A stretch of DNA of 64,000 nt from Thermomonas sp. Its GTDB lineage: Bacteria > Pseudomonadota > Gammaproteobacteria > Xanthomonadales > Xanthomonadaceae. Position 1 is the first letter of the stretch. Every line of letters starts with the position of its first letter. Position numbers and translations under genes: made by a program. The stretch spans positions 10,162 through 74,161 of the forward strand of contig NZ_JBKBPN010000008.1 of NCBI RefSeq assembly GCF_046293095.1, read 5' to 3'. This document shows positions 18,287 to 64,000 of this stretch, in pieces. The notes beneath the pieces were generated by a model, which made no database searches, had not been told where the DNA came from, and worked only from the letters and a program-made list of their open reading frames with translations.

Positions 18287-18554
18287 TGCCAGTTCGACTG
18301 TCACAGCCAACTTGCAGGCCACTTCTGAAGGATCGCCACTGGTCATCCCCGGAACCCACCGGAATGGCTTGTGACAAGTTCTGTGACAGTTCCATGTGTC
18401 ACAGCAACAGCCAGACCCGCGAAAGCGACCCCAACACTGGAATCCGGCACACCTGTACGACAGTGCCATCGCCGGGCTCGAGCTCCACGGCCCCCAATTC
18501 CATGAGCCATTCGGCGGCATACTGCCCTGGGGGACATCGGGACTGCGCAAGGTA

Positions 18555-48295: not shown

Positions 48296-48296
48296 G

Positions 48297-49835
48297 TCAG
48301 TGCCCCTCGTGCCCGGTGGGGGAAGTAGGTGCGGCGTGGTCGCCCATCGTCCCGTGGCCGCCATGGCCGCCATGGCCGTCTTGGCCGGCGGGTGCGTCAA
48401 GGGCGCTGGCGGGAGCCGGCGCATCCGCCGGCGCCGCAGGCATGGCATGGCCGGCATGTGGGTCAGCCGCCTCCTCGCTGTGCCCGGCGTGCGGATCCGC
48501 TGCCTCGGCACCATGGCCGGCGTGCGGGTCGGCGGCGCCATCGCCTGACTGTTCGCGCTGCGGATCTTCACTGGTGCCGGAGGGCGACCCGTGTCCTGCG
48601 TGACCCTCAAGCCCCTTGAGTGCCGACTGCAGGTTGCTCTCGGCGTCGATCAGGAAGTTGGCGGACACCACGACCTGTTCGCCTTCAGACAACCCGTCGA
48701 GGATCTCGATGCGCTCGCCGCCGCGACGACCCAGGGTCACGTCGCGCGGTACAAAACGGCCCGCGCCGGTCTCAACCAGCACCATCTGGCGCGTGCCGCT
48801 GTCCAGCACGGCCGAACGCGGAACGGTGAGCACCGGGCCGGTTCCCGGCGCCTCGAGCAGCACCGTCCCGTAGAGCCCGGGCCGCAGGTCGCCGTTGGGA
48901 TTGGGCAATGCGATGCGCACGTCCACGGTGCGCGTCATTGCATCGATGACGGGCTGCACGAAGGTGACCTTGCCCTTGGCCACTTGGCCTGGCAGGGCTA
49001 CGGTTTCAAAGCGGGCGGGCTGGCCGATTGCTATGCCCGCGGCCTGCGCCGCCGGCACCTTGGCGACCACCCACACCATCGACAGGTCGGCCAGGCGCAG
49101 GATGGTCTCGCCCGCCTCGAACCGGGCGCCCTGGACCACCGGTTTTTCGATCACCACCGCATTTGCCGGCGCGGTGAGGATCAGGGCCTTCTTGCCCATC
49201 TGCGCATTGCTGATTTCCCAGTTGCGCAGGCGGGTACGGGCGGCATCGCGTAGGCGGGTCATCGATGCCGCGCTGGCGGGATCGGATCCGGCCAGCCTGC
49301 GGGCGGTCTCGTCAGCGAGCCTGTATTCCTGCTGCGCCGCAGCCAACTGCGGGCTGTAGACGGATAGCAGCGGCTGCCCGGCGCGGACCCGCATGCCGGT
49401 CTGGTTCGCGTACAGCCGCTCCACCCAGCCTTCGAAGCGCGGGGCAATGACGTACTGTCGGGTCTCGTCGACCTCGACCGTGCCGCTGGTGCGCACGGTG
49501 GCGGACAGTGCCCCGCGCGTAACCGCTTCCGTGCGCACGCCCAGCGCCTGCACCTTGTCCGGCGGCAGCACCACCGTGCCCGGCGCCGCCGGCGGCGCGT
49601 CGTCGGCATAGACCGGAACGTAGTCCATGCCCATCGGATCCTTCTTCGGCACCGGCGAGGTGTCGGGGAGCCCCATGGGATTTCGGTAATAAAGCACCTT
49701 GCGCTCCGCGGCAGGCGCCTCGGCGGATGTAGCTGCGGTCGGCGAATCGTTGGTCGCGCGGCCGGCCATCCAGCCTGTGGTGAGGGCGGCGAGTGCGACG
49801 CCGATGGCGAGCGACAGGGTCTGGACACGGGTCAT
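48297..49835 (-). CDS. cusB: Cu/Ag RND periplasmic adaptor with extended His-rich C-terminal tail
   Basis: The MFP core (MGLPDTSPVPKKDPMGMDYVPVY...) is followed by ~100 aa containing three ADPHAGH repeats and a GHGGHGGHG run. Confidence 0.85.
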   Translation of the reverse strand: MTRVQTLSLAIGVALAALTTGWMAGRATNDSPTAATSAEAPAAERKVLYYRNPMGLPDTSPVPKKDPMGMDYVPVYADDAPPAAPGTVVLPPDKVQALGVRTEAVTRGALSATVRTSGTVEVDETRQYVIAPRFEGWVERLYANQTGMRVRAGQPLLSVYSPQLAAAQQEYRLADETARRLAGSDPASAASMTRLRDAARTRLRNWEISNAQMGKKALILTAPANAVVIEKPVVQGARFEAGETILRLADLSMVWVVAKVPAAQAAGIAIGQPARFETVALPGQVAKGKVTFVQPVIDAMTRTVDVRIALPNPNGDLRPGLYGTVLLEAPGTGPVLTVPRSAVLDSGTRQMVLVETGAGRFVPRDVTLGRRGGERIEILDGLSEGEQVVVSANFLIDAESNLQSALKGLEGHAGHGSPSGTSEDPQREQSGDGAADPHAGHGAEAADPHAGHSEEAADPHAGHAMPAAPADAPAPASALDAPAGQDGHGGHGGHGTMGDHAAPTSPTGHEGH

Positions 49836-51154
49836 CGGATATCTCCTTCGATGGCGCGCACGGCGGCGGCGCCCAACAGTTCGTCACGCAATGCATCGAC
49901 CCGTGCGAGGTCGGCGCCCTGCCATTCATTGAGTGCTTCCAGCAGCGTCCCGAAGTCGACTTCGCCGACCTGGTAGCTCGCCAGCGCCGACTGCCAGGTG
50001 GCGTCGGCCTGCGGCAGCAGCGTGTTCTGGATCAGTTGCCGGCGTTCGCGGGCGCTGGTCCACTGCGACCAGGCGGAAGCGCCTCGCTCCTCGACGGCCC
50101 GCAGCGTGGCGTCCCTGCGGGCCAGCGCGGCTTCCTCGAGCAGGCGCGATTCGCGCTCGCGCTCGCGGCGGGCGCGCTGCTGGAACGGGATCTCCACCTC
50201 GAGCATCAGCTCGGTACTCTGGATGCCGTTGCCCAGCTGCATCGCACCCACGCCGACGGTGATGTCGGGAAAGCGGTTGCGACGCTGCAGCACCACATTC
50301 GTGCGCGCGGCCTCGGCGCGGGCCTGCTGCGAACGGACCGCGGGGTGCGTGTCGGCGGCGTCCAGAGCCTCGGCAAGCGAAGCGCTGCGGACGGCAAGGC
50401 GCGGCGCCTCGTCGGGAGCCGCCAGCGGTGCATCGGAACGGCGCCCCAGCACCGCGTTCAAGGTGGCGGCCGCCTCCTGCTTGGCGGCGAGGCGTTCGAT
50501 CCGCTCGCGCTGCAGGCTGGTCTGCTCGACCTGGGCGCGGATGGCATCCTGCTGTGGCGCGCGGCCAAGGGCGTAGCGCACTCCCGCGATCTCTTCGACC
50601 TGGCGGAGCAGGGCGATGCGGCGATCGAGCACGGCTACCGCTTGATCGGCATGCCAATAACGTGCGTAGGCCGCCTCGGCGTCGGACAGCAGGTCGCGCG
50701 CCGCGGTGATGCGATCGAGCCCGATCGCGACCGCGTCCTGGCTGGCCGCAGTCCGCATCAGGTCGCGCTTGCCCCAGAGCGGGAAGCGCTGGCGCAGCGC
50801 GTAGTTGACCTCACGGTCGGCACCGACGGTGCGCCAGGGTTTGTCCGGATCGAGGCCGCGAAATCCCACTGAGGCCATTGGGTCGGGCAGGGCGCCCGCC
50901 GGCAGGATCCGCGCTTCGGCAGCCTGGGTTTCCAAGCCCATGGCCCGAAGCTCGGGGTTGTGTTCGAGCACCCAGGTCCGGATCGACTCGAGACTGTGTC
51001 CCGGGATGGGCTCGGTTGCGGTCACCGGCAGCGCCAGCGCCCACAAGGCGCCGGCGAGCACGCAGGCGAGCAGGCGCCGCCGCGGTGGCCGCTGGCAGGA
51101 CAGCGGGTGGCAGTGCAGGCGGCTGGCCTGCCACAGGTAGAACGGAGATGCCAT
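49832..51154 (-). CDS. cusC: Cu/Ag RND outer-membrane factor
   Basis: TolC-family repeats. 4-nt overlap with cusB. Start at the ATG at 51152-51154, which leaves a long n-region before the hydrophobic signal, so the start is uncertain. Confidence 0.8.
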   Translation of the reverse strand: MASPFYLWQASRLHCHPLSCQRPPRRRLLACVLAGALWALALPVTATEPIPGHSLESIRTWVLEHNPELRAMGLETQAAEARILPAGALPDPMASVGFRGLDPDKPWRTVGADREVNYALRQRFPLWGKRDLMRTAASQDAVAIGLDRITAARDLLSDAEAAYARYWHADQAVAVLDRRIALLRQVEEIAGVRYALGRAPQQDAIRAQVEQTSLQRERIERLAAKQEAAATLNAVLGRRSDAPLAAPDEAPRLAVRSASLAEALDAADTHPAVRSQQARAEAARTNVVLQRRNRFPDITVGVGAMQLGNGIQSTELMLEVEIPFQQRARRERERESRLLEEAALARRDATLRAVEERGASAWSQWTSARERRQLIQNTLLPQADATWQSALASYQVGEVDFGTLLEALNEWQGADLARVDALRDELLGAAAVRAIEGDIR

Positions 51155-51279
51155 ATCAGTGTCCTTGGGCCGACGCGACGCAGTCGCTCGGCCGGGGCAG
51201 GAACACATGCCGTGACGCGCACGGCACGAACGCACAGCACTGCACCGCACAGGCGTGCGGCGCAGTCAGCGTTCGGGCA

Positions 51280-51699
51280 TCAGATCAGCAGGAGGGCCGC
51301 GGGATGCGCGGTGGGTCGGTGCCAGGCAGGCGTGGGTGGCGAATCGACCCATGTGGACGTAACCCCGGGGCCACCGTCCGCGACTTCCGCGACCGCGAAC
51401 CAGGAGAACCACACGCCGACAAGCAGCGGCGGAACCGGCGGGATGCGTCCGCTGTCTGCCGAGAGGTCGCCTTCGCTGCAGTGCGCGGTACACAGTGCCT
51501 CGTCAGCCGAGGGAAGCTCGGCGCCACAACCGTGACCGTGGTCGTGGTGGGTGTCCGCGTCGGCCGCGACTGCGGCGGTTGTGGCCTTGAGATCCAGACA
51601 GCCGCCATGACCGGCCAGTGCGAACTGGGACCAGAGCAACGCCACCATCGCGAGGAGGGCAGTGCGCTTGAACCAGTTCCGATGGCGAAGGCGGATCAT
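51280..51699 (-). CDS. small Cys/His-rich CopL/DUF2946-like protein preceding cusCBA
   Basis: 139 aa with signal/TM ALLAMVALLWSQFALAGHGGC and clusters DTHHDHGHGC and CTAHCSEG. It occupies the same position relative to cusCBA as copL does to copAB. Confidence 0.55.
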   Translation of the reverse strand: MIRLRHRNWFKRTALLAMVALLWSQFALAGHGGCLDLKATTAAVAADADTHHDHGHGCGAELPSADEALCTAHCSEGDLSADSGRIPPVPPLLVGVWFSWFAVAEVADGGPGVTSTWVDSPPTPAWHRPTAHPAALLLI

Positions 51700-51831
51700 G
51701 GTCGGAGCTTACTCTTTGTCTGATCCGGTGCAACTGATCCAGATCAATTTCTGGTCAGGAACAGAGACGGCGGGGGAGTTCGTGCCGATGCTCGGCGGGG
51801 GAGGGACCATCAAGACTATGCGCCATCGCGC

Positions 51832-52767
51832 TCAGGCAGCCGCGGGGCTGAGCGTTCCCAGCACAGAAACGACGATCAGGATCAGGATGGCCAGTGCTGC
51901 TTCAGCCGCGACACTCTGCCGCAGGGCGCGCACCTCCTGCACAGGATCGCCGCTTTCCAAGGCGCGTCCCAGGCGCGGCACCAGCGTCCAGCGGTGCAAT
52001 GCACCCAGACCCAGCATGCCTCCGAACAGGGCAAGCTTCACCAGCAGCAGGTTCCCGTACGTGCTCTCGAGCAGTGTCGACAACGACCATGCGGTGAGAT
52101 CACCGTAGTGCGTGATGCCGGACACGATGAGCGCAGCGACGAAGACCGTGCCGAGCGTCGAGAATCCGTGCAGAAGATCATGCGTCGTTCGAAGGTGCCC
52201 ACTGCCGGAGACCGCCTCCCTGCGCAGGAGCAGGCCCAGGAACACCAGTACCGCGGCAACCCAGCCGCCTGCCGCGAGAAGGTGGACCAGGCCCGCAGCA
52301 AGCCGCAGCGCACCGGACGCGCCTTCACCGGCGGCGGCGTGGCCGTTCCATGCCAGCGTAGCAAGTGCGCCGCCCGCCAGCATTGCCAGCCGCGGAAAGG
52401 CGGACTCCACCTTTCCGCGGCGGCGCTGCCATCCGAGCACGACGATCAGGATGACCAGCAATGCGCCCCTCGCTGTCGCTGCCAGGCCTGCGGACGTCTC
52501 GAACAAATACCAGCCCAGCGATGCGCGATCGACGTCGGCAACCGGCATCCCCAAGATGCTCGCGGTCTTGACCACGACGTCGGTCCCGGTGAGCATGAGA
52601 CCGACGGCGGCACCCAGCAACAGAACTCCCCTGAGCGGCCAATCGCTCAAGGCGTCGGCGATGGCGGTTCGATGCGAACCGTACCATCCGAACAATGGCA
52701 CCCCGAACAGGACCATCAGGACCAGATACTCGAGGAACCGCAACACGTACGCCGCCGGGTCGAACAT
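51832..52767 (-). CDS. copD: copper resistance membrane protein CopD
   Basis: 311 aa, about 8 TM helices, immediately downstream of copC. Confidence 0.8.
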   Translation of the reverse strand: MFDPAAYVLRFLEYLVLMVLFGVPLFGWYGSHRTAIADALSDWPLRGVLLLGAAVGLMLTGTDVVVKTASILGMPVADVDRASLGWYLFETSAGLAATARGALLVILIVVLGWQRRRGKVESAFPRLAMLAGGALATLAWNGHAAAGEGASGALRLAAGLVHLLAAGGWVAAVLVFLGLLLRREAVSGSGHLRTTHDLLHGFSTLGTVFVAALIVSGITHYGDLTAWSLSTLLESTYGNLLLVKLALFGGMLGLGALHRWTLVPRLGRALESGDPVQEVRALRQSVAAEAALAILILIVVSVLGTLSPAAA

Positions 52768-52777
52768 GTCGGGATCC

Positions 52778-53161
52778 TCAGCGCACAGTGAAGCTGAAGC
52801 TGCCCGTCATCGGGTGGTTGTCGCCCCCAACGGCGCGGTATTCCACGCGATAGGCACCCGCAGCCAGTGGCTTGGGCAGCTTGGCACGCAGCGTCTTGCC
52901 GTTGTTGACGATCTCGGTCGTGAAATTCTCGACCGGCATGGTGGAGCTGCCGTGCTTCATGAGCAACTTGAGGCGCGAGGCCCGCGGAATCAGCGTTTCG
53001 TTGAATACCAGATCAATCTGGCTCGGCGAGGCCACCACCGCATTTGCCGCCGGCGTGGACTGCTGCAGCGCGGCGTGGGCGTGGGCAACTTGCAGCGAGA
53101 ACTGGCCCGCTGCGATCGCGAAGACGAGCGCCATGGAGCGAAAAACGTTTGACAAGTTCAT
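52778..53161 (-). CDS. copC: periplasmic copper-binding protein CopC
   Basis: Signal peptide followed by a mature N-terminal HA(A)L sequence (AHAHAALQQSTPAANAVV). It has a CopC beta-sandwich length of 127 aa. Confidence 0.85.
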   Translation of the reverse strand: MNLSNVFRSMALVFAIAAGQFSLQVAHAHAALQQSTPAANAVVASPSQIDLVFNETLIPRASRLKLLMKHGSSTMPVENFTTEIVNNGKTLRAKLPKPLAAGAYRVEYRAVGGDNHPMTGSFSFTVR

Positions 53162-53225
53162 ATCGATGATCCTCGTTGCGAAGGTGGTGCAATGCCTCCG
53201 TTCGGCGGCATTGCTTGGTGGCTGT

Positions 53226-53750
53226 TCAGTGCTGTGAGAACGGCTCAGTGGTTCCGTCGTGCCGGACCAGTTCGACCGTGTACGGCTGCTGGCGCCCGTC
53301 CGGCACCTCCATGCCGGGCGAACCGAGCGGCATTCCCGGCAGGACTAGGCCGCGTGCGTCCGGCTTCTCTGCAAGCAGGCGCTTGATGTCCTCGGCCGGG
53401 ATATGGCCCTCGATGAGGTATCCGCCGACCTCGGCCGTATGGCAGGAGCCCTTGGCATAGGGAACACCCAGGCGCTCCTTGACCGGACCCAGGTCGTCCA
53501 TGTCATGCACATCCACGGTGAAGCCTGCTTTTTTCACGTGGTCGATCCAGCTGCCGCAGCACCCGCAGGTCGGGGTCTTGTGGACGGTCATGCGGGGCAG
53601 GGCAGCGGGAGTCGCGTCGGCTGTTTCCTGGACGACCTGTGCAGCGGGCGCGATGGTGGATTGCGTGGGTGTAGCCGCCTGGGTGCAAGCACCCAGGCCC
53701 GCCACCGCAAAGGCAACCCAGGTCAGGCGGTTCAATCTGTAAGCCTTCAT
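53226..53750 (-). CDS. copG: DUF411 metal-binding protein (CopG-like)
   Basis: Signal peptide, then TCGCCGSWIDHVKKAGF and GSCHTAEVGGYLIEGHIP, which are DUF411 signatures. Start at the ATG at 53748-53750. Confidence 0.8.
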   Translation of the reverse strand: MKAYRLNRLTWVAFAVAGLGACTQAATPTQSTIAPAAQVVQETADATPAALPRMTVHKTPTCGCCGSWIDHVKKAGFTVDVHDMDDLGPVKERLGVPYAKGSCHTAEVGGYLIEGHIPAEDIKRLLAEKPDARGLVLPGMPLGSPGMEVPDGRQQPYTVELVRHDGTTEPFSQH

Positions 53751-53764
53751 TTCGGAGTCCCCGC

Positions 53765-54277
53765 TCAGCGTTTGGTTCGCGAGGACCAATGGATGTGGAC
53801 GATGCGCCAGCCGTCCGCGGTCTGTTGCAGCACCATCGTCTCGGTGCTCTGGACGGTCAGTGGCTTGCCGTCCTTCTTGGCGTGCAGCTCGCTTTCGGTG
53901 CCGACCCAAGCGAACTCGCCCGCGACCCGTGCACGCTGGCGGAGCAGCTGGCGATGCGCGCCCTTGAGGAATGCCGCATCGCTGACGGCGTGGTGGCCCA
54001 TGTATTCCTCGCGGCTGCGCTCGGCGCCTCCGGATTCCAGGATGAGGACGTCGGCTGCGAGCAGCGCTTCGACCGTGGCCATGTCACCGCTGGACAGCGC
54101 GCCGTGGAAGCGTTCGGCCACCGCGACCGCGGCTGTTGCGTCGGTAGGAACATCCACGTCCGCGCTGGCCGCGGCGACGGGGTGATGTTGTGCATGGGAC
54201 TGCGTCGCCTTTGCCATCGCTGGCGGCACGATGGCGAGCGCCAGGGCGAGGGTGATGGAAGTTGTCATTGCGTTCAT
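53765..54277 (-). CDS. NTF2/SnoaL-like (DUF4440-type) exported protein in the cop cluster
   Basis: Signal peptide. VAERFHGALSSGDMATVEALLAADVLILESGG ... WRIVHIHWSS matches the SnoaL/DUF4440 fold pattern. It occupies the copM slot of the Xanthomonas copLABMGCD order (from memory). Confidence 0.6.
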   Translation of the reverse strand: MNAMTTSITLALALAIVPPAMAKATQSHAQHHPVAAASADVDVPTDATAAVAVAERFHGALSSGDMATVEALLAADVLILESGGAERSREEYMGHHAVSDAAFLKGAHRQLLRQRARVAGEFAWVGTESELHAKKDGKPLTVQSTETMVLQQTADGWRIVHIHWSSRTKR

Positions 54278-54368
54278 GCAGAGACTCCAGTAGATCGATG
54301 GTTGTGTGCTTGCCAGCCGTCACAGTCAGGCGTGGTTCGGGTGTCGGGTTTCAATGTGCGTTTGCCTG

Positions 54369-55451
54369 TCAGAACCAGATACGAACGCCCGCCACGATCC
54401 GGGTGTCGTCGATGTCCCCGGACTGCGCGCGACGCTGATCCGCGGTTCGGCCATAAGCGCGTTCCCAGACCACGCCGAGGTAGGGCGCAAACCGGCGATG
54501 GAACTCGTAGCGCAGGCGGAAACCGGCTTCGACCTTGCTCAGTCCGCTGCCGATGCCAACCGCCGGATCGTCCTTGCTCCATGCTTCGCCCTCGACCAGC
54601 CACTGGCCGATCAGGCGGTTGGTGAACAGCGTTTCGTATTCGGCTTCCGCGCCGAGTCCGACCTGGCCGGACTGCCCGAGATAGGCGGTCGCCTTGATTT
54701 CAAACTTGTACGGGGCAAGGCCGATGACGCCGAGCGCGGCATAGGTGCGCGACAGGGCGCCGCCAAAGCCGAAGTCATGGCGAATGCCGGCGACGGCGTC
54801 CCACCAGGGGGCGATCGCGCGGCCGTACAGGACTTCCACATCCGCCGATTCGGTAGAGCCGCCTGCACGCTCGCCCTCGCTGCGGAGCCAGAGCCGGTTC
54901 AAGTCGGAGCCGACCCAGCCTTGCGCTTCCCAGAACATGCCGGTGCCGCGCTCATCCGCGTCCCACGCTTCAAGCCGGTCAAGCGACCAGTACGAGTTGA
55001 TCGATTCGCCGTGCATCACGTGGGCGTCGAGTGGTTGGAACGCGGCGGCCCGATCTGCCGGTGTAACGACCGGGATGGGCTCGCGCGGCTCGGCCGTGGC
55101 TGGAAGATCCTGGCTGGCAGCAGGCTGATGAACCATCGACGAGTGGTCCATCTTGGAGTGATCATCGCCAGCCATGACTGCGGCCCCTTGCTTCATGGCG
55201 CCGTGGCCCATGTTGGCGTGGTCCATCGCCCCCTCGTCCTCGGAACTCCTGGCGGGCGGGCTCGGCTGGTGGCCGGCATGCGGGTCCACAGGCTTGGCCG
55301 GCGGCTGGCTTGCAGCGGGTTTCGCTGGCGGCTGGTGCGCCGCATGGTCCGCCTGCTGCGCCCACACCGGCGCGATGCCGGCTGCGAGTGATAGTGCAGA
55401 GGCCAGGCCGATGGCCAGAGAATGGCGGTGGGAACGGATCATGGCGTTCAT
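54369..55451 (-). CDS. copB: copper resistance outer-membrane protein CopB
   Basis: Signal peptide, a Met/His-rich N-terminal region (DHANMGHGAM..DHSKMDHSSMVH), a C-terminal beta-barrel and a terminal WF. ATGA overlap with copA. Confidence 0.85.
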   Translation of the reverse strand: MNAMIRSHRHSLAIGLASALSLAAGIAPVWAQQADHAAHQPPAKPAASQPPAKPVDPHAGHQPSPPARSSEDEGAMDHANMGHGAMKQGAAVMAGDDHSKMDHSSMVHQPAASQDLPATAEPREPIPVVTPADRAAAFQPLDAHVMHGESINSYWSLDRLEAWDADERGTGMFWEAQGWVGSDLNRLWLRSEGERAGGSTESADVEVLYGRAIAPWWDAVAGIRHDFGFGGALSRTYAALGVIGLAPYKFEIKATAYLGQSGQVGLGAEAEYETLFTNRLIGQWLVEGEAWSKDDPAVGIGSGLSKVEAGFRLRYEFHRRFAPYLGVVWERAYGRTADQRRAQSGDIDDTRIVAGVRIWF

Positions 55452-57286
55452 TCCTCCACCCGCACTTCGCGGAACATGCCGGCTTCCATGTGGTAGAGCA
55501 GGTGGCAGTGGTAGGCCCAACGGCCAAGGGCATCGGCACGCACCCGGTAGCTGCGCCGGGTGCCGGGCGGCATGTCGATGGTGTGCTTGCGCACCATGAA
55601 GTTGCCCGATTCGTCCTCGAGGTCGCTCCACATGCCGTGGAGATGGATCGGGTGCGACATCATCGTGTCGTTGACCAGCACGATCCGCAGGCGCTCGCCG
55701 TAGTTCAGGCGCAGCGGCTGTGCGTCGGCGAACTTCACGCCGTTGAACGACCAGGAGAAGCGCTCCATGTGTCCGGTCAGGTGCAGCTCGATCGTGCGCC
55801 CGGGCTCGCGCCCGTCGGGGTCGCGGAAGGTGCTGCGCAGATCGGCGTAGGTCAGCACACGGCGACCGTTGTCGCGCAGGCCGATGCCCGGGTCATCCAA
55901 CCTGGGCACGGGCGCCATCGTCTGCATGTCGACCAGGGGATTGCCGGTTTCGGTGACAGGGTGTTCCTGCATCCCGCCGCCACCGTGGTCCATGCCGGCC
56001 ATGCTGCCGCCGGCTGTCGCATTGGAGGACATTGACGACATGTCGTGGCCGCTGTGATCCATTCCGGCCATGGCACCGCCGGCCATCGACGACATGTCGT
56101 GGCCGCCGCCACCCATTCCGCCATGGCCCATGTCGTCCATGCTGAGGATCGGCTTTGGGTCGACGCTCGGAATCGGCGCGCGCAAGCCTTCCCTGGCCGC
56201 GAGGGTGCCGCTGATGTAGCCGGAGCGGCCGCTGTCCTGGGCGAAGATGGTGAATGCATCCTGCCCGGTGGGTTCGACAATGACGTCGAAGGTCTCGGCG
56301 GTGGCGATGCGGAACTCGTCAACGGTCACCGGACGCACGTACTGGCCATCGGCCGCGACCACGGTCATCTTCAGGCCGGGAATACGCACGTCGAAGTACG
56401 TCATCGCGGAGCCGTTGATGAAGCGCAGGCGCACCTTCTCGCCCGACCGAAACAGCCCGGTCCAGTTGCCGAGCGAGGTCGTGCCGTTCATGAGGTAGGT
56501 ATAGGTGTTGGCGTTGACGTCCGACAGGTCGGTCGGCGTCATCCGCATCTGGCCCCACATCTTGCGGTCTTCGACGGTAGCGGCCAGGCCGTTCTGCTCC
56601 ACGTCGTGGAAGAAATCGCCAACCGTCCGCTTGGAAAAGTTGTCGAAATCCGAGCGCTTCTTGAGCCGGGCGAACAGGCGCTTCGCATCAAGATCGGTCC
56701 AGTCGCTGAGCATGACCACGTAATCGCGGTCATATGCGAACGGTTCGGGTTCCAGCGGCTCGATGATCAGCGGCCCGTAGAGGCCGGCCTGCTCCTGGAA
56801 GCCGGAATGGCTGTGGTACCAGTAGGTGCCGCCCTGCACGACGTCGAAGCGGTATTGATACGTCTCGCCGCGGTTGATGCCGTTGAAGCTGAGCCCGGGC
56901 ACGCCGTCCATGTTGGCCGGCAGCAGGATCCCGTGCCAGTGGATCGACGCCTGGCTGCCATGGATGGAGCCGGCGGGCAGGGCATTGCGGACCCGCAGGT
57001 TGACGGTGGTGCCTTCGCGCCAGCGCAGCAGCGGTGCCGGAATGGATCCGTTGACCGTGATCGCGGTGCGCGTGGCGCCGGTGAAGTTCATCGGCGTCTC
57101 GCCGATGGTCAGGTCGAAGTCGGTGCCCGAGAGCACGTTGGGTACGCCCTCGGCCTGGACGGCCCAGCTCGAACGGGGCCAGAGGCCGAGTGCCGCAACG
57201 GCGCCGCCGGCGGCTAGTCCCTGAACAAAGAGGCGGCGCGACGGGACAGACAGCCCCTCGGCACGGCCGAAAGAATCGGAAGACAT
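55448..57286 (-). CDS. copA: copper resistance multicopper oxidase CopA
   Basis: Tat signal (SRRLFVQGLAAGGAVAALG), Cu sites HWHG and HCHLLYHMEAGM, and a Met/Gly/His-rich insert (MGHGGMGGGGHDMSSM). Confidence 0.9.
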   Translation of the reverse strand: MSSDSFGRAEGLSVPSRRLFVQGLAAGGAVAALGLWPRSSWAVQAEGVPNVLSGTDFDLTIGETPMNFTGATRTAITVNGSIPAPLLRWREGTTVNLRVRNALPAGSIHGSQASIHWHGILLPANMDGVPGLSFNGINRGETYQYRFDVVQGGTYWYHSHSGFQEQAGLYGPLIIEPLEPEPFAYDRDYVVMLSDWTDLDAKRLFARLKKRSDFDNFSKRTVGDFFHDVEQNGLAATVEDRKMWGQMRMTPTDLSDVNANTYTYLMNGTTSLGNWTGLFRSGEKVRLRFINGSAMTYFDVRIPGLKMTVVAADGQYVRPVTVDEFRIATAETFDVIVEPTGQDAFTIFAQDSGRSGYISGTLAAREGLRAPIPSVDPKPILSMDDMGHGGMGGGGHDMSSMAGGAMAGMDHSGHDMSSMSSNATAGGSMAGMDHGGGGMQEHPVTETGNPLVDMQTMAPVPRLDDPGIGLRDNGRRVLTYADLRSTFRDPDGREPGRTIELHLTGHMERFSWSFNGVKFADAQPLRLNYGERLRIVLVNDTMMSHPIHLHGMWSDLEDESGNFMVRKHTIDMPPGTRRSYRVRADALGRWAYHCHLLYHMEAGMFREVRVEE

Positions 57287-57390
57287 GGAAACTCCGGGAA
57301 AAGGTCGAAGGCTCGCGAAGCGAGCATTACTCTGTCAGTGCGGAACTCACGGACAGATCCAGCGGCGCCGATGACGGCGCGCCGCGACAC

Positions 57391-57813
57391 TTAGCCGATC
57401 GGAGGTCGCAGGAGGTTGGCCCGGGCCGCGGATGCGTGCCCGGACAGGAAAGGTTCGGCGGTCTGCCGGTAGCCGGTGCTGAGGTCGGCAAGCATCGACC
57501 AGGCAAGTGCCGCTGAGCAATGGTGCATGCATGCGCAGCAATCGCCCGCCCGGCAGCAGTCATCCGCTGGCGATGCGTCGCCGGCCTCATTCGTAGCCTG
57601 CGGGGGGCCGTGATCCACGGCCGCTGGAGCGGTCGCTTCGGCCCCGTGGCAGGCGGTTATTGCCTCTGCTGCTGCCTGCACCGCAGCCACGTCAGACAGA
57701 TCGCCGGAGTTGCGCAGGTGCTCCAGATGCATGGACGCGCCCGCGACGCCCGGACCGTTGGCCAAAAGCGCAACGACCAGGAACAACCGCATCAGGAGCG
57801 CACGCAGAGCCAT
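57391..57813 (-). CDS. copL: CopL-family Cys/His-rich regulatory protein
   Basis: 140 aa with a signal/TM segment, a DDCCRAGDCCACMHHC cluster and a C-terminal LLRPPIG. It lies directly upstream of copAB, as in Xanthomonas copLAB. Confidence 0.7.
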   Translation of the reverse strand: MALRALLMRLFLVVALLANGPGVAGASMHLEHLRNSGDLSDVAAVQAAAEAITACHGAEATAPAAVDHGPPQATNEAGDASPADDCCRAGDCCACMHHCSAALAWSMLADLSTGYRQTAEPFLSGHASAARANLLRPPIG

Positions 57814-57881
57814 GCACCCGATTATACATCCGCATGTAAACGTGGAATGAATGCAGCGATACCAGGCGAGTGCAGTAGTCA

Positions 57882-57901
57882 GCTTTCGACCCAAAGCAGA
57901 C
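57882..57901 (+). repeat. 20-mer junction repeat, copy 2 (GCTTTCGACCCAAAGCAGAC)
   Basis: 19/20 identity to copy 1. It lies 69 nt beyond the copL start, at the right edge of the metal block. Confidence 0.8.
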
Positions 57902-57929: not shown

Positions 57930-58448
57930 CTACAGCGCCGGCAAGAGGTCGTGGGTCAGCAGCTTGAACGTCAGCATGTGCGGCTGCCGTTCGTTGTAGT
58001 TGGTGGTAGTGATCACGACCACGGCGTGCATTTTCGGCAGCAGGAACACCGCGTTTCCGCCGGTGCCGGCCATCGTAGGCACCGTGATGGTCGCATCGCC
58101 ATACGAAATCTTCATCAGCCACCACAGGCAACCGTAGTCCGCGTCCTCACGCGCCATCGCCTGTGCGTTGATCGAGCGTTGGACCCACTCGGCTGGAATG
58201 AGTTGCTTGCCACCGTAGCGCCCGCCATCAAGGTACAACTGGCCGAGCTTCCACAGGTCGCGGGTTCGCAGGCCAAAACCACCCCCGGCCTGGGCCAGTC
58301 CCAATGGGGAGACTACCATTCGGGCGTCTGGATGCCCTGCGGATCGAACAGCCGACGTTGCGCGTAGCTCTGCAAGGGTTCGTGCACCGCGCATTAGACG
58401 ACCCGGCAATCTCGAACCCAAAGAGTCTGCCGGATCGGCCGAGCGCAT
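57930..58448 (-). pseudogene. C-terminal fragment of a serine hydrolase (beta-lactamase/PBP fold)
   Basis: GGGFGLRTRDLWKLGQLYLDGGRYGGKQLIPAEWV ... YGCLWW ... matches the C-terminal third of class-C-type serine hydrolases. No SxxK-containing N-terminal part is present. Confidence 0.5.
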
Positions 58449-58478
58449 CTCTACGCTCAGTTGGGATGACCACGAAAA

Positions 58479-58498
58479 ACGGCCCGCGAAAGCGGGCC
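58479..58498 (-). terminator. orphan hairpin terminator (T-run on minus strand)
   Basis: CGGCCCGCGAAAGCGGGCCG is preceded on the plus strand by GAAAAA, which is a T-run on the minus strand. No intact minus-strand gene ends just upstream of it. Confidence 0.5.
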
Positions 58499-58647
58499 GT
58501 CGAAGAAGTGGGGCGGAATTCGCGGCGGGAGCAAGCCCAGGCCCGCGCTCCTTTCCCCTTTAGTTTTCGGATGACCCGAAGGTCAGGCGTCTAGTATAAC
58601 GAGCAGGCTGCGCCGAATGTCAAGCCACCCCTCACCGGACTGAATGC

Positions 58648-60441
58648 ATGCGAATCGACAAGCGCCTCGGGGCACTTACCGCACCCACCGACGCCCAGCG
58701 CTACTTCCTGTCTTGCTGGTTCAACCTGGTTCATGAGTACTCACTGGATTCCTATCGTGTCCGAGTCATGAACCCCGGGACCATGCTGCGCGAGATCCAG
58801 CGCGCCCTGACCTTCGCCGAAGCCAAGCCCGAGGACAAGGCCATGATCTTGGATGAGGCGCAGCAATTACTCGCGGCCGATCGTGTCCTCACCGTCGGGC
58901 CGTTTCCTCCGGTCATGGCACGTCTGAACGCCTTGCTGAACGGTGACAAGCTCAAGCTGGTCAGTGCCAGGGGCCCTGATGAACGGATGCTCGCTTACAC
59001 CGTCAATGAACTTCAGCCGCTCTTGGACCAGCAATACATCCCGATTGCTTTCAGCCAACTCGAGGATCTTCTGATCACCCAACCCGATCAAGGCCATGCG
59101 CCGGATCTGACGGTAGTGCACGGAATCACAGCGGCGCTTCTAAGCACGTTGCTTGACCGCAATTTTTCGCTTGAGTCACTTTATCGCATCTACGCCGAGG
59201 TACTCGTTCCGCGCAAGCCAGACCGGGTGTACCGCTTCGATCGTAAGCTTGGGCTAACACGCTTGCTGTTGACGCAACCTAGTCAGATATTCGACGTAAC
59301 CTTCGCGCTGGATCAGATCACCAAGCCTGAAGAAATCCCGGCAGCGCTAGGGCATCTGGCTATTTCCGACACACCGCCGTTTGCCCTGCACGTTAGGCAT
59401 GCCAAGACCAGCTACCTCACACCTTTGCCCAAGCGTCGTTTCGTTACCATTCGGGGGCTCTCAGCCGCCGACCGTAGGGCGGCGGGGTTACAGGCCTACG
59501 ATCAGCTCGCAAACGTCATCAACCTGCTTCGGTTCGAATACGAACAGGCTAGGTTGCAGATCCCAGGCCAGTTTGCGGTCCTGGATCTGTCGCGGCCCGA
59601 GCAAGGAGGCCGGGTCTACTACTTGCCTAGAGTTGTGCCCAATCCCACGTTGGCGCTCAATGGTAACGATGCGGCAGATTTTGTCGCCAGTGTGAACGAA
59701 CTTATCGGCGGTTCCCGCTTCAGCGATGAGGGTCGAGATCGGATTACCTCTGCATTTCGCCTTTACCGCCAGGGGCGCGATCAGGACACCATTGAGACCA
59801 AGTTGGTACATTGGTGGACCGCGCTGGAATACCTTGTGCGGGGCGGTCAGGCAGGCAGCGGCATTGGGAAATCGGTGGAATCGAGCTTGGCGCCCGTCAT
59901 TGGCCTGAGCTACGCCCCCAAGCTCCTCATCGTCGTACGCAACCTTCTTACGGACTTTGGCATCGGCTTGGTCGATGCCAACTGCCAACCACTGAATCTG
60001 CGCGCTTTGACCCTGGGCCAGCTATGGGACGTGTTCAAGGACCCGACTCAGCAGGCCGCCATTCATGCCGGTTTGGCCGCTGAGCCATTCCTGCAGATCC
60101 AAGTCCAGCAGTTCCTGAGTGAAGTCGCCACGCCCGCCACAATGCTCGAACGGCTGCGTAAGCATGATCAGCGGGTACGCTGGCAGATTCAGCGCCTCTG
60201 GCGGACCCGCTGTGACATCGTCCACAGCGCAGGGCGTGGAGCAAACCATCTATTACTCTGTTCGAACTTAGAGTACTACCTCAAGACGGCCTTGCATGGC
60301 GTCCTAGCCGCGCTGCGCTCGGTACCTACGTTGAGTGGTCCACTTGAGTACTTTGATCGGGAGGCCTATCGGTACGACTGCATAATCAAGGCTCTGGCTG
60401 CCGGAAATGATGCTGAGGTGCGGGCCAGCTTCCCGACTTAG
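58648..60441 (+). CDS. 597-aa hypothetical protein with C-terminal HEPN-like domain (Rx4H)
   Basis: Long ORF in a lower-GC segment. The C-terminal helical region has ...LVHWWTALEYLV... and RLWRTRCDIVHSAG, matching the h-[YW]-x-x-R-x-x-[IV]-V-H-[GS] pattern of HEPN RNase domains. I recognise no motif in the N-terminal ~380 aa. Confidence 0.75.
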   Translation: MRIDKRLGALTAPTDAQRYFLSCWFNLVHEYSLDSYRVRVMNPGTMLREIQRALTFAEAKPEDKAMILDEAQQLLAADRVLTVGPFPPVMARLNALLNGDKLKLVSARGPDERMLAYTVNELQPLLDQQYIPIAFSQLEDLLITQPDQGHAPDLTVVHGITAALLSTLLDRNFSLESLYRIYAEVLVPRKPDRVYRFDRKLGLTRLLLTQPSQIFDVTFALDQITKPEEIPAALGHLAISDTPPFALHVRHAKTSYLTPLPKRRFVTIRGLSAADRRAAGLQAYDQLANVINLLRFEYEQARLQIPGQFAVLDLSRPEQGGRVYYLPRVVPNPTLALNGNDAADFVASVNELIGGSRFSDEGRDRITSAFRLYRQGRDQDTIETKLVHWWTALEYLVRGGQAGSGIGKSVESSLAPVIGLSYAPKLLIVVRNLLTDFGIGLVDANCQPLNLRALTLGQLWDVFKDPTQQAAIHAGLAAEPFLQIQVQQFLSEVATPATMLERLRKHDQRVRWQIQRLWRTRCDIVHSAGRGANHLLLCSNLEYYLKTALHGVLAALRSVPTLSGPLEYFDREAYRYDCIIKALAAGNDAEVRASFPT

Positions 60442-60575
60442 CAGGCCTTGAACTTGCGCAAGTGCTGCGTCGCGTTCGAGCACACTTGATCAACAAACAC
60501 CGGCTCGGGTAACTGGGTACGCCGAGAGCTGGTGTGCAAGGAGATCAGATGGATTGATCAGGGGTAGGGATGAGC

Positions 60576-60595
60576 AGCTTCCGACCCAAAGTGGA
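60576..60595 (+). repeat. 20-mer junction repeat, copy 3 (GCTTCCGACCCAAAGTGGAC)
   Basis: 18/20 identity to copy 1. It lies in the gap between the HEPN-like gene and the HNH gene. Confidence 0.75.
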
Positions 60596-60713
60596 CATCG
60601 AATGCGGACTGTCGGGTGCGGACTGACCTACAGGTCGACGAACTGCTGTCATATGGCTGGAAGCCCGTCAGCGAAGCATGCACGGTCACTCCAATTGTCC
60701 GTGAACCGCTACC

Positions 60714-61628
60714 ATGGGTTCTGCACCCATCTTTAATCACCACAGGGCAATGGAAAGCGAGAAGGAAAGAATCGCCAAGTGGCGAGCCGAGAAGCAGCGC
60801 CGACGCAACGAGCAGAAGGCCCAAGCCGTCAAGCAGACCTATCGAACCTTGTTCGCAATTGACGACAACGAACTTATCGACCCCCCTGAATTTCAGGAAT
60901 ACCTTGTCCGGCAAAATCTGGCGAAGGGCAACCTCGCCCGACGGATGAGCAGCGGTGAGGTCCGGGTAGCGTTGAGGACTTGGAGCCTGGACGAGCTGAA
61001 TCAGCTGTGGAGCATGCGCCGAGAAAAGCTCACGTACCTTGAAGACGCGGCACTGCTGCTGTCCCACATCCGCCATCGGTCCGGAATTGACGCGCACCTG
61101 CATCCAGTTGGAGAGTTTCTTGGATACGAGGCCATCCAAGCCCTCCGAGGTGTGCTTGAAGATAGTGGGCGATTGGTGGTTTCGGAGCCGTATCCCCTAA
61201 CGGGGGAAGCCATAGTGGCTGAGGGCAAACGTGTGGAGCAAGTGCTCCGGGTCATCCGCGAGGGCCAATCAGAGTTCCGCAAGCGCTTAGTGGCTCACTA
61301 TGGAGCGGTATGCATGGTGACAGGGACCGCCCAAGCGGTCGTCATTGACGCTGCCCACATTGTCCCCTACAACGGGGCATCGACCAACACGCTGAGCAAC
61401 GGGCTGCTGCTGCGGAAGGATATCCACGCGTTGTTCGATGCGGGCTTGCTGGCGATAGGACCGGACTTGGTCGTCTACGTCGCCGCAAGAGTGGAGGATC
61501 CGCTCTACCGTTCCCTAGACGGCCAGGAACTGACGCTGTCAGCCGAACCCAAGATGTCGAAGGAAGCTCTGAGGCGGCGTCTTGCTGGTGAGGAATTATC
61601 CGAGCTTGGAGCGAGATCAACCCCTTAA
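60714..61628 (+). CDS. HNH endonuclease (HNH_2 / PF13391-like) with charged N-terminal extension
   Basis: GQSEFRKRLVAHYGAVCMVTGTAQAVVIDAAHIVPYNGASTNTLSNGLLLRKDIHALFDAGLLAI is the canonical HNH_2 core. The alternative start at ATG 60750 (MESEKERIAKW) is equally plausible. Confidence 0.8.
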   Translation: MGSAPIFNHHRAMESEKERIAKWRAEKQRRRNEQKAQAVKQTYRTLFAIDDNELIDPPEFQEYLVRQNLAKGNLARRMSSGEVRVALRTWSLDELNQLWSMRREKLTYLEDAALLLSHIRHRSGIDAHLHPVGEFLGYEAIQALRGVLEDSGRLVVSEPYPLTGEAIVAEGKRVEQVLRVIREGQSEFRKRLVAHYGAVCMVTGTAQAVVIDAAHIVPYNGASTNTLSNGLLLRKDIHALFDAGLLAIGPDLVVYVAARVEDPLYRSLDGQELTLSAEPKMSKEALRRRLAGEELSELGARSTP

Positions 61629-61749
61629 ACTTGCCCCACGTCTCTATCGTCAACCGCCTCAGGGGGACATTGTTGATGCGGGACGATCGCAAGGTCGAAA
61701 GCCAGACGGGTGCTGACTTCGACTTGTGGATCGCCAGCCGATGGGAAAA

Positions 61750-61810
61750 GGCTTCGTTTCGCCATTCAGCCGAGATCGCTTCGCGGCGCGGCTTAACTCA
61801 GGTGTTAGCC
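61750..61810 (+). repeat. integron attC site A (left half degenerate)
   Basis: The right two-thirds (CATTCAGCCGAGATCGCTTCGCGGCGCGGCTTAACTCAGGTGTTAGCC) match the attC family below, including the core GTTAGCC at 61804-61810. The inverse-core region reads GGCTTCGTTTCGC instead of GGCTAACAATT. Confidence 0.75.
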
Positions 61811-61826
61811 GTCAAAGGAGACTGTC

Positions 61827-62222
61827 TTGCTATCCGACGTTCTTGGCCTCGCTGGTGTTCTGATTGGTGTCGCTAGCCTCGGGTACGCCATTTGGCAGGG
61901 GTCCGAGAAGCGAAAGCTCGAAAGGCTCGTCCGGGCCCAGAATTGGCATCTGTACTCAAAAGCAACTAATGCCAATGGCTCGCTGCAACTTGCAGCAGAC
62001 AAGTACAAGTCTGCGCATGCCGGCGCACTTTCCCACGATGTTATTGAATGGCTTTCGAAGGCCGACGCGTTCAACCAAGACGTGCTCAAAGACATCGCTC
62101 GCTCAATTCAGTCGTCCGAGCGAAAATTCGGAGAAGAGCAGATAGTGAGCTGGGTCTCAACAGGAAAAATCAGTGAACATCATGCAAAAGAGATCTTCAG
62201 GAAGATCGCGGTTGACGGCTAA
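61827..62222 (+). CDS. cassette 1 ORF: 131-aa N-terminally membrane-anchored helical protein, unknown function
   Basis: TTG start 6 nt after AAGGAG. TM helix VLGLAGVLIGVASLGYAIW. The TAA stop lies inside the inverse core of attC B. Confidence 0.7.
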   Translation: MLSDVLGLAGVLIGVASLGYAIWQGSEKRKLERLVRAQNWHLYSKATNANGSLQLAADKYKSAHAGALSHDVIEWLSKADAFNQDVLKDIARSIQSSERKFGEEQIVSWVSTGKISEHHAKEIFRKIAVDG

Positions 62223-62276
62223 CAATTCATTCAAGCCGAAGCCGCTTCGCGGCGCGGCTTAACTCAGGTGTTAGGG
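62217..62276 (+). repeat. integron attC site B
   Basis: GGCTAACAATTCATTCAAGCCGAAGCCGCTTCGCGGCGCGGCTTAACTCAGGTGTTAGGG is 60 bp and almost identical to the aadA1-type/Xanthomonas-type 59-base element as I remember it. Confidence 0.9.
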
Positions 62277-62285
62277 CGCACCCAA

Positions 62286-63008
62286 ATGTCGAAATTCGAT
62301 CGCTACCCAATTAGCGTGCCACTATTCCTATACGGCTACGCAGTATTGTTGAGCGGTGCGTATTTGTACGCTTACTGGACTCCGATTGGCTTCGATCCCT
62401 TCCCGTACTTGACCGTACAACAGGTTCTGACAGCCCCACTCTCCAGCCTGATCACAGTCTTTGCGCCGTTTCTCATCATGTTGGCTGTGATTCCATTCGA
62501 CAAGAGCGACCTGCCTAAAGACAAAAAGTATCTTTGGTCAATTGTTGCCGCCCATCTGCTCTTTTATCTTGGCGGCATCATTCAATCGCTTTATCTCACA
62601 AACACCAATACGACTAGGGGCGCAGAAGACTCTCTTCTTGCCATCACTGGCATCTTGGCAATGGGTTCATTAGGCGTAATGCGCAGATTCATGCGAGAAC
62701 CCGAGCAGCTATTTTTCCCGCTACTCGCGGTAGCGTTCGCACAACTTGCTGTTGCTTTGACCTACGGTCACTTAGCAGGCAAAAAAATACTATCCGCAAA
62801 CACAATAGTGACCTATCAGATTAGAACGCTCACGCCAAGAACAGAAGTTTGTGGTGAGTCACCCGCCCACGGCTGGACGTACTATCAAACATTAGGCGAC
62901 CACACCTTCTACGTTGACAGATCATCCAAGAGTATCTGTATCTCGGATAGCCAAAACGTTGTCTTAGATCAGAATACTTTCAAGCCGCATAGCAAAAGTG
63001 CGCCCTAA
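62286..63008 (+). CDS. cassette 2 ORF: ~240-aa polytopic membrane protein, unknown function
   Basis: About 5-6 hydrophobic helices, then a ~70-aa C-terminal soluble segment with two Cys. ATG at 62286 was chosen, because the track start at 62268 lies inside the attC core. The TAA stop lies inside attC C. Confidence 0.7.
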   Translation: MSKFDRYPISVPLFLYGYAVLLSGAYLYAYWTPIGFDPFPYLTVQQVLTAPLSSLITVFAPFLIMLAVIPFDKSDLPKDKKYLWSIVAAHLLFYLGGIIQSLYLTNTNTTRGAEDSLLAITGILAMGSLGVMRRFMREPEQLFFPLLAVAFAQLAVALTYGHLAGKKILSANTIVTYQIRTLTPRTEVCGESPAHGWTYYQTLGDHTFYVDRSSKSICISDSQNVVLDQNTFKPHSKSAP

Positions 63009-63062
63009 CAATTCATTCAAGCCGACGCCCCTTCGCGGCGCAGCTTAACTCAGGTGTTAGGC
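63003..63062 (+). repeat. integron attC site C
   Basis: CCCTAACAATTCATTCAAGCCGACGCCCCTTCGCGGCGCAGCTTAACTCAGGTGTTAGGC, 60 bp. Confidence 0.9.
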
Positions 63063-63078
63063 CGCAGGAGACCATGCA

Positions 63079-63744
63079 ATGCAACCTGACCCGCTCCTAC
63101 AAGTGCTCGAAGCAATACAAACGAGAACTCGGGCTGAGCTAATTGCCGCCGGACTCTTGATTGCTTTAGCTACACTTGCCAGCTACTTTGGCGCTAGGCT
63201 GCGTAAGTCGGGTGAACTCAAAGAAATAGAGGCGAACTTCGGCAAGATTCTCACCCAACAGACCCAAATTGCTGAAGCAACCGGGAAAATCAAAGCTTCG
63301 CTGGAACAAGGCAATCTTCGCTATCAGATTCAACTTTCTGCTTATCAACAGAATGCGGTTCTAGCCATTGATGAGATCTACAACGCTTGCCTCATTCTTA
63401 GAGATTCAGCTATTGCTGTCTCCCATACCCGCGCCGGGCGTGAAGCTCTTTTTGAGAGCTCACGATCGTTCATTACCGTCTACGACAAAAAGAAAATCTG
63501 GCTGCCTGACGAGCTAAGCGAGCACATTAGACAGATCGCCAATGATCTTGACCTTCGTAGCAGACGTTTTATGCGTGCGCAAGACACGTTGGACAATGTT
63601 CAAACCGCACCCCAAACAGCCATTCAAAATGCTTGCGACGAGCAGGAATCCTTCTATGACTTCGTCAACCAAGAGATTCACATGCTGTTTGAACAACTCT
63701 CGTCAAGAATTCGGGCAATTGTCGAGCCAAAGCCTGCGGCCTAA
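63079..63744 (+). CDS. cassette 3 ORF: 221-aa membrane-anchored coiled-coil-like protein, unknown function
   Basis: AGGAGA lies 7 nt upstream of the ATG. TM helix LIAAGLLIALATLASYFGA, then a helical region. The TAA stop lies inside the inverse core of attC D. Confidence 0.7.
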   Translation: MQPDPLLQVLEAIQTRTRAELIAAGLLIALATLASYFGARLRKSGELKEIEANFGKILTQQTQIAEATGKIKASLEQGNLRYQIQLSAYQQNAVLAIDEIYNACLILRDSAIAVSHTRAGREALFESSRSFITVYDKKKIWLPDELSEHIRQIANDLDLRSRRFMRAQDTLDNVQTAPQTAIQNACDEQESFYDFVNQEIHMLFEQLSSRIRAIVEPKPAA

Positions 63745-63752
63745 CAATTCAT
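63739..63752 (+). repeat. integron attC site D, truncated after 14 bp
   Basis: GCCTAACAATTCAT matches the family. The sequence then diverges (ATATGGACTCC...), and no GTTRRRY core follows. Confidence 0.7.
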
Positions 63753-63786
63753 ATATGGACTCCTCCGTCAACCAGTAATTGCGCGA

Positions 63787-64000
63787 TGGATCCTGCGGTC
63801 GGGAAGCGGTGCGGTTGCATTCGTATATTCGGCCTTGCGGTGGGCGCATGCGCCCGGGCCATCATGGAAGTCGCGAAGCGGGTGCCTGTCGTTCAAGCGG
63901 CCTCGTGGGCCGGCATTGTTATCGGCGTGTTCCGCTTCGGGACCGAACCCTTCGCCATGAGCAAGATGTTTCCGGAAGTGCCTGATCGGGTGGAACGGTG
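63787..64000 (+). CDS. possible 5' part of an ORF running off the window end
   Basis: My own translation from ATG 63787 is MDPAVGKRCGCIRIFGLAVGACARAIMEVAKRVPVVQAASWAGIVIGVFRFGTEPFAMSKMFPEVPDRVER, open to the window end, with higher GC again. It is not in the supplied track and I recognise no family. Confidence 0.3.

Follow-up and report, generated by a model that had tools for sequence, protein, structure and literature searches.

The right end of a 64,000-nt stretch of a Thermomonas sp. genome (contig NZ_JBKBPN010000008.1, positions 10,162 to 74,161; the whole stretch is hereafter called the window, and coordinates are counted from its first letter) carries a series of related repeats that separate short genes, which raises the question of whether these repeats are integron attC sites and, if so, where the integrase that would serve them is located. 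A previous reading of the letters alone (the sequence-only reading) had proposed an array of integron cassettes without an integrase, i.e., a cluster of attC sites lacking an integrase (CALIN). The repeats are genuine attC sites of the already described Xanthomonadales type, to which the clinical cassettes aadB and aadA1 belong. The region from 61754 to 64000 and beyond is very probably a fragment of a Xanthomonadales-type (Lysobacterales) cassette array that resides in the Thermomonas chromosome without an integrase of its own. The features of this region are as follows.

Leader, 61629-61753, plus strand: 125 bp of non-coding DNA between the stop codon of an HNH endonuclease gene and site 1.
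Site 1 (attC1), 61754-61812, plus strand: decayed or truncated attC in which the inverse core R'' is absent.
Cassette 1, 61805-62270, plus strand: 466 bp, with an open reading frame (ORF) at 61827-62222 for a protein of 131 aa with an N-terminal hydrophobic segment and no known family.
attC2, 62215-62278, plus strand: intact, with CTAAC at 62219-62223 and GTTAG at 62270-62274.
Cassette 2, 62271-63056, plus strand: 786 bp, with an ORF at 62286-63008 for a protein of 240 aa with several hydrophobic segments and no known family.
attC3, 63001-63064, plus strand: intact, with CTAAC at 63005-63009 and GTTAG at 63056-63060.
Cassette 3, 5' part, 63057-63751, plus strand: ORF at 63079-63744 for a protein of 221 aa, plus the 5' stub of attC4.
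attC4, 5' stub, 63739-63751, plus strand: 13 nt (GCCTAACAATTCA), of which only R'' is present owing to an insertion sequence (IS).
ISPa25 element, transposase-distal end, 63752-64000, minus strand: 249 bp of non-coding DNA, the region that would encode the guide (seek) RNA.

Direct reading of the window revealed a 62-nt repeat in three copies (61753-61814, 62219-62280, and 63005-63066), whose starts are 466 and 786 bp apart. The fourth attC begins at 63739, a further 736 bp on, and was placed by an 18-nt repeat family whose third copy lies at 63735-63752. The 30-nt right half of the repeat (CTTCGCGGCGCNGCTTAACTCAGGTGTTAG) is present in three copies with no mismatches and the 21-nt left half in two copies; dinucleotide-preserving shuffles give an expectation of zero such copies, and the repetition is thus far beyond chance. 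The mutually complementary R'' (RYYYAAC-like, here nnCTAAC) and R' (GTTRRRY, here GTTAGnn) are present in attC2 and attC3, and site 1 fails in this respect. A strict RYYYAAC...GTTRRRY regular expression applied to 57-64 kb was too strict for this family and overlooked GGCTAAC. Local alignment to the family consensus confined the homology of site 1 to the stretch from 61763 (CATTCA-GCCGA...) to the GTTAG at 61804-61808; this site is 69% identical to the other copies and is devoid of the CTAAC inverse core.

A covariance model was built from 47 distinct Lysobacterales attC sites, all from other genomes and none from the window, with an imposed structure consisting of the R stem, spacer, L stem, and top stem (17 pairs). 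This family-specific model was used in place of the IntegronFinder attC model and was searched against the whole window on both strands with the filters off. It assigned 82.4 bits (E = 1.5e-20) to attC2 at 62215-62278, 79.6 bits (E = 9e-20) to attC3 at 63001-63064, and 31.7 bits to site 1 at 61754-61812, where two R-stem pairs are broken and 5 nt are deleted. With this family-specific model, no further attC was detected on either strand of the 64 kb beyond the three scored sites. When folded as bottom-strand single-stranded DNA, attC2 formed an R stem, an unpaired spacer, and an L stem (-14.2 kcal/mol, z = -3.8), and attC3 adopted the same layout (z = -3.6), whereas site 1 as single-stranded DNA showed no attC fold (z = 0.02). 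The sequence-only reading had described four attC sites of one family as near-identical to the aadA1/Xanthomonas-type 59-base element and had named rejection by a covariance model as a refutation. The independent Lysobacterales model accepted two sites strongly and one weakly; the repeats do lie where they had been placed, but only two of the four are intact, and near-identity applies to attC2 and attC3 and not to the site at 61750-61810.

The 30-nt right half was also found in more than 118 genome stretches among the matches listed in a scan of one genome per species. The named carriers among these matches are mostly Lysobacterales, including Thermomonas, Lysobacter, Cognatilysobacter, Luteimonas, Novilysobacter, Arenimonas, Stenotrophomonas, and Xanthomonas, and a minority of contigs from metagenome-assembled genomes bear other taxon labels. 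The listed matches often form tandem arrays of up to 16 copies, many of which have on their left, on the opposite strand, an adjoining intI whose product is 50-57% identical to IntI1; two of these adjoining integrases, in Thermomonas, bear Pfam integrase domains. Plasmid matches span attC1 and attC2 at 88-90% identity. The attC of aadB equals the Lysobacterales consensus and aligns with the window sites, and the intact window sites differ from the consensus at approximately 4-5 positions, in the R''-L'' spacer and the upper stem. The earlier assignment to the aadA1/Xanthomonas attC family is borne out both by this identity and by the predominance of Lysobacterales among the carriers of the 30-mer. 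In a published survey, 99.4% of Xanthomonadales-like attC sites occurred in Xanthomonadales genomes, Thermomonas included, and the attC sites of aadA1a, aadB, aadA2, and other cassettes were assigned to the Xanthomonadales type (Ghaly et al., PMC8352920).

For the integrase, the entire 64 kb was searched by tblastn with IntI1, XerC, and five Lysobacterales IntI proteins as queries; the IntI1 query agreed at 99.7% with an annotated intI1. Only noise was returned (best E for IntI1, 0.31), and no gene or pseudogene resembling IntI or XerC was detected in the 64 kb. A weak IntI match at 15528-15941 (E = 0.003) is antisense to a patatin-like gene and was rejected as noise. In a Pfam scan, the main ORFs of 18-58 kb encoded a type I restriction subunit, cation efflux, RND, and P-type ATPase transporters, phosphoketolase, acetate kinase, and cop genes, and no recombinase was found among them. 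In every reference locus, intI lies on the left side of the array and is read from the other strand. The definition of a CALIN applies on the left side because intI is absent over the 61.7 kb where the reference loci place it. The cluster comprises two intact attC sites, one decayed site, and one site split by an IS, at spacings of 466, 786, and 736 bp, and is a cluster in the sense of that definition. The definition asks for no intI within approximately 4 kb of the cluster; none was found in the 61.7 kb to its left or elsewhere in the window, which ends at 64000, and the intI, attI, and Pc beside the first cassette that characterize a complete integron are lacking in the window. Within the window, the array is a CALIN under an IntegronFinder-style definition, as had been proposed, and the remark that intI should lie leftward yet no tyrosine recombinase is there withstood the search of all 64 kb. 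In Xanthomonas, approximately half of the genomes contain CALINs at a distance from intI (PMC12444791).

The organization of the intervals is that of cassettes. Each interval contains a single plus-strand ORF, with TAA stops at 62220-62222, 63006-63008, and 63742-63744. These stops sit in GGCTAAC, CCCTAAC, and GCCTAAC, respectively, and the stop TAA is the TAA of the inverse core for all three ORFs. Cassette 2 is the sole cassette with an intact attC on both sides. The start of each cassette is exactly complementary to its own 3' end over 12-14 nt in all three cases (GTTAGCCGTCAA/TTGACGGCTAAC, GTTAGGGCGCAC/GTGCGCCCTAAC, and TGTTAGGCCGCAGG/CCTGCGGCCTAACA). In 182 adjacent attC pairs of the reference arrays, complementarity past GTTAG/CTAAC has a mode of 7 nt, and the corresponding values in the window are 7, 7, and 8; self-complementary ends are therefore the norm of the family and are not peculiar to this locus. 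They agree with the textbook view in which the final bases of each R' are part of the following cassette. Accordingly, the sequence-only reading was correct on the delimitation of one-ORF cassettes in a single orientation (466 and 786 bp) and on the position of every stop codon inside the inverse core, and the six-base complementarity that it reported is real and longer than reported. The self-consistent ends that it singled out are present as well, but as a general property of the attC family.

The proteins of cassettes 1-3 had no sequence match in Pfam, NCBIfam, PADLOC, PHROG, or PDB. An AlphaFold model of the cassette 3 protein consists entirely of helices (pLDDT 75), the first long helix starting in an N-terminal hydrophobic segment, and Foldseek yielded only weak, non-significant helical-bundle matches to it (E > 0.01). 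Cassette 3 has 11 detectable homologues, all of which are metagenomic, and a protein-guided scan of genome contigs with cassette 3 found no relative. The closest homologue (contigs L146-L151) shares 92% amino acid and 86% nucleotide identity; it follows a consensus attC and a different upstream cassette, begins with the same cassette start (TTAGGCCGCAGGAGA), and has its own intact and longer attC. Comparison of the two genes gave a ratio of nonsynonymous to synonymous substitution (dN/dS) of 0.053. A more distant homologue, in a marine contig, is flanked by repeats that belong to a different attC-like type. That the cassettes are real modular genes follows from the other upstream neighbor of the cassette 3 homologue and from the dN/dS of 0.05, and the substitution pattern indicates strong purifying selection on cassette 3. 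No sigma-70-like promoter match was found in 58300-64000. Read-through transcription of the cassettes from upstream is possible because all genes from that of an ApeA homologue onward (58648) share one orientation.

The fourth site (63739-63752) is attC sequence, as had been claimed, but it is the stub of a split attC rather than the end of the array. An exact look-up of the cassette 3 protein identified four short metagenome contigs, among them L002, which equals window positions 62248-64000 at 100% identity and then runs on past the window end. In L002, GCCTAACAATTCA is followed by a 1407-bp element, after which the attC resumes with TCGTCCAAGCCGACGCCGCGTCGCGGCG; the junction at the far end of the IS reads ...CCATTCCAT|TCGTCCAAGCCGACGCCGCGTCGCGGCG. 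The fourth attC is split by the IS and is not the array end, and the array therefore continues beyond the window. The IS has subterminal inverted repeats (GGACTCCTCC/GGAGGAGTCC). Its transposase, encoded in L002 on the minus strand and outside the window, has 352 aa, the Pfam domains DEDD_Tnp_IS110 and Transposase_20, and a match to the NCBIfam IS110 RNA-guided transposase (328 bits). The element is approximately 98% identical at the nucleotide level, and 99.4% identical in its transposase, to an annotated "ISPa25 family" copy on Pseudomonas aeruginosa pHPA0698-3 (NZ_CP137509.1, our locus L005), which sits in the blaOXA-17 attC of a class 1 integron. In both of the independent ISPa25 insertions, that in attC4 and that in the blaOXA-17 attC, the insertion point is 6 nt 3' of CTAAC and tnp runs antisense to the cassettes. 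The approximately 98% identity of ISPa25 between an environmental Thermomonas and a clinical plasmid implies recent exchange between these settings. The clinical comparator is a class 1 integron with aac(6')-Ib and blaOXA-17 on a P. aeruginosa plasmid from South Korea.

ISPa25 is one of the IS1111 elements that target attC (Post and Hall, 2009, and Tetu and Holmes, 2008, as cited in PMC11187229 and PMC12444791). The target of these elements is selected by a seekRNA encoded downstream of tnp, and the predicted ISPa25 seekRNA has the same target matches as ISKpn4 (Siddiquee et al., PMC11187229). The non-coding end of the IS contains TAACAAT, which equals the left flank of the insertion point, and, as judged by eye, GCTTGAACGA, which is the complement of the right flank. 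An ISPa25 seekRNA carrying TAACAAU and GCUUGAACGA may be encoded on the minus strand at approximately 63850-63950, and attC4 was presumably targeted by such a guide RNA.

In the explanation that we favor, each unit is a promoterless one-gene cassette ending in attC. An integrase from elsewhere in the genome would fold the bottom strands of attC sites and recombine neighboring sites at G|TT, by which cassettes would be excised or reshuffled. The array is by now partly immobilized, with attC1 deprived of its inverse core and attC4 split by ISPa25, which may find the R''-L'' spacer of attC via an RNA guide from its non-coding end. Only cassette 2 (62271-63056) is predicted to be mobilizable because attC1 cannot fold and attC4 is split. 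We infer recombination in trans, as well as the route by which the array fragment reached this locus.

Backbone proteins encoded at 2.6-18 kb are identical to NCBI proteins of Thermomonas sp. from a contig of 90,028 bp, which holds proteins MFN3704214-MFN3704225. The composition of the window is mixed: the GC content is 0.66-0.71 across the backbone, falls to 0.57-0.58 in the 59-62 kb region, and reaches 0.49-0.52 within the cassettes. A cus/cop copper-resistance module (45439-57897: RND pump, CopABCD, and DUF411) recurs at 98-99.9% identity in many unrelated genomes and contigs, and this similarity stops sharply at 57897. It is followed by a serine-hydrolase-like fragment of 172 aa (57930-58448, minus strand). 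The ApeA homologue (58648-60441, plus strand) matches the anti-phage protein Ec4ApeA over its full length (PDB 9hxm, E = 4e-41) and has an RCDIVH HEPN-like motif near its C-terminus, and an HNH_2 endonuclease (60714-61628, plus strand) resembles type II and phosphorothioate-dependent restriction enzymes. Together they constitute a small defense unit that immediately precedes the array, shares its orientation, and has an intermediate GC content (0.57). It is doubtful, although conceivable, that ApeA and HNH form an integron-derived block that ends at the decayed attC1, that cassettes 1-3 are undescribed anti-phage genes, and that the whole is a defense islet frozen by attC decay and ISPa25. If this were true, the concept of chromosomal integrons as defense biobanks (bioRxiv 10.1101/2024.07.02.601686) would be extended to Thermomonas and to CALINs. 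The cassette genes are reasonable low-priority candidates for a defense screen because they are next to defense genes.

Between the HNH gene and site 1, the leader has no excess structure, and neither the array nor the IS nor the leader itself yielded a structured RNA or an Rfam family; in a first metagenome scan, a 39-mer taken from the leader had no exact match. The 147 bp to the left of site 1 showed no similarity to ISPa25 (score 21 versus a shuffle mean of 20.7) and no match to plasmids or to any fetched locus. The possibility that site 1 is the footprint of an IS1111-attC element was considered, as its homology starts 1-2 nt from the ISPa25 insertion point, and is not claimed. Contigs L001 and L003 share the array and diverge from the window to the left of 61620. 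A rearrangement breakpoint at 61619/61620 was rejected, as the divergent flank encodes an IS1595-family (ISXO2-like) transposase; the junction is an insertion polymorphism, because this flank abuts unrelated DNA in three more contigs (L143-L145). The uninterrupted window allele at 61619/61620 is also present in L124 and L125. The IS1595-family insertion between the HNH gene and the leader occurs in some metagenomic variants of the locus (L001 and L003), and in L144 the same IS end adjoins another cassette array.

Other explanations for the locus were weighed against that of an array fragment without an integrase. It is improbable that the array belongs to a complete integron whose intI and attI would lie just outside the window, either farther along the contig or moved away through an inversion or a rearrangement mediated by an IS. 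Such an arrangement would fit with a window that stops 249 bp into the IS while the array continues, with a source contig that extends past the window, and with the complete integrons of the same attC type in Thermomonas relatives. However, the reference intI is always on the left and on the opposite strand, where the window offers 61.7 kb without an IntI-like sequence or pseudogene; moreover, the leftmost attC is decayed, and the flanking ApeA, HNH, and cop/cus module are unlike the genes beside intI in loci L051 or L077. The cassettes might instead have been inserted singly at a secondary site (attG) by an integrase acting in trans, and not be a piece of an older array. Insertion of this kind has been documented experimentally (cited in PMC12444791), and the locus is a patchwork of acquired DNA in which the GC content falls from 0.66-0.70 to 0.57 and then to 0.49. 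An attC x attG junction, however, leaves just G|TT on the left, whereas cassette 1 is preceded by 46 nt (61763-61808) that correspond to the right part of an attC; cassette 1 was therefore already downstream of another attC, which makes single insertion at attG quite improbable. An assembly chimera, in which repeats were collapsed or contigs of different organisms were joined in a metagenome-assembled genome, is brought to mind by short-read assemblies of the same DNA, which break at the attC repeats and inside the IS, and by cassettes of 49-52% GC in a genome of 67-70% GC. Contigs from independent samples nevertheless overlap the window at 99.9-100% identity (L125, 57726-61806; L124, 60618-61806; L001, 61620-64000), L002 covers the path from 62248 through the IS to the remainder of the attC at 99.9-100%, and every junction was reproduced in independent assemblies from other samples. 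A chimera is thus exceedingly improbable.

Several points count against the reading of the locus as an array fragment that is served in trans. The covariance model would miss attC sites of another type upstream, and the left limit of the integron-derived DNA lies somewhere between 57897 and 61754. An intI may be located elsewhere in the genome, or to the right of the window after an inversion. The guide matches in the IS (a 7-mer, and a 10-mer with one mismatch) are singly no better than chance and count by position only.

Farther to the left, 24 nt at 18100-18123 nearly duplicate the anticodon-arm region of a tRNA-Met (18147-18223) that comes after them. Beyond this tRNA-Met, the GC content drops, and a type I restriction R subunit (18396-21683) and approximately 40 kb of metal-resistance and accessory genes are encoded. 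The region after the tRNA-Met resembles a genomic island for which the window contains no integrase, and no second copy of the tRNA-Met 3' end, as a repeated island boundary, was found in the window. Probably a repeated mobile remnant, the segment 30436-31659 is approximately 90% identical to DNA of Alterluteimonas muca (L079) and of contig L144, contains ORFs without a Pfam match, and adjoins a region (from 31660) that matches an IS3-family element at 80% identity. A cobalamin riboswitch (7790-8015, minus strand, 101.7 bits) lies upstream of a TonB-dependent receptor gene (5777-7660, minus strand), which is annotated elsewhere as a vitamin B12 transporter, and this arrangement is ordinary.

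The locus is a new instance of a documented kind, as CALINs, this attC family, and IS1111-attC insertions are all already known. It provides a further example of Xanthomonadales-type cassettes that circulate in environmental Thermomonas. Such cassettes are thought to be the reservoir of the aadA, aadB, catB3, and qac cassettes. The same attC-seeking ISPa25 (approximately 98% identical) is common to a Thermomonas chromosome and a clinical Pseudomonas class 1 integron, and the array illustrates a loss of mobility through attC decay and IS insertion. Beyond correct annotation, the finding matters little.

The sedentary chromosomal arrays and CALINs of Xanthomonadales/Lysobacterales, including the ilvD-linked arrays of Xanthomonas and those of Lysobacter, Luteimonas, and Thermomonas, share the same 59-60-nt attC family with an exact right half. 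Their cassettes likewise hold one ORF each, share a single orientation, place the stop codon within the inverse core, and show R-box complementarity of approximately 12 bp; most of them are ORFans, as in the window (PMC12444791, PMC8352920). Unlike these arrays, the window has no intI or attI in 64 kb and its first attC is decayed, and unlike the intI loci of two other Thermomonas genomes, its array is located beside an ApeA/HNH pair and a copper-resistance module. The inserted element shares with the IS1111-attC group (ISPa25, ISKpn4, ISPst6, and ISPa21) a DEDD (IS110-type) transposase, subterminal inverted repeats, and insertion in the R''-L'' spacer (PMC11187229). Its host here is an environmental Thermomonas chromosome and not Pseudomonas or a clinical integron. 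Furthermore, unlike the aadB and aadA1 cassettes of class 1 integrons, the cassettes of the window carry no resistance gene and are located on the chromosome rather than on a mobile integron.

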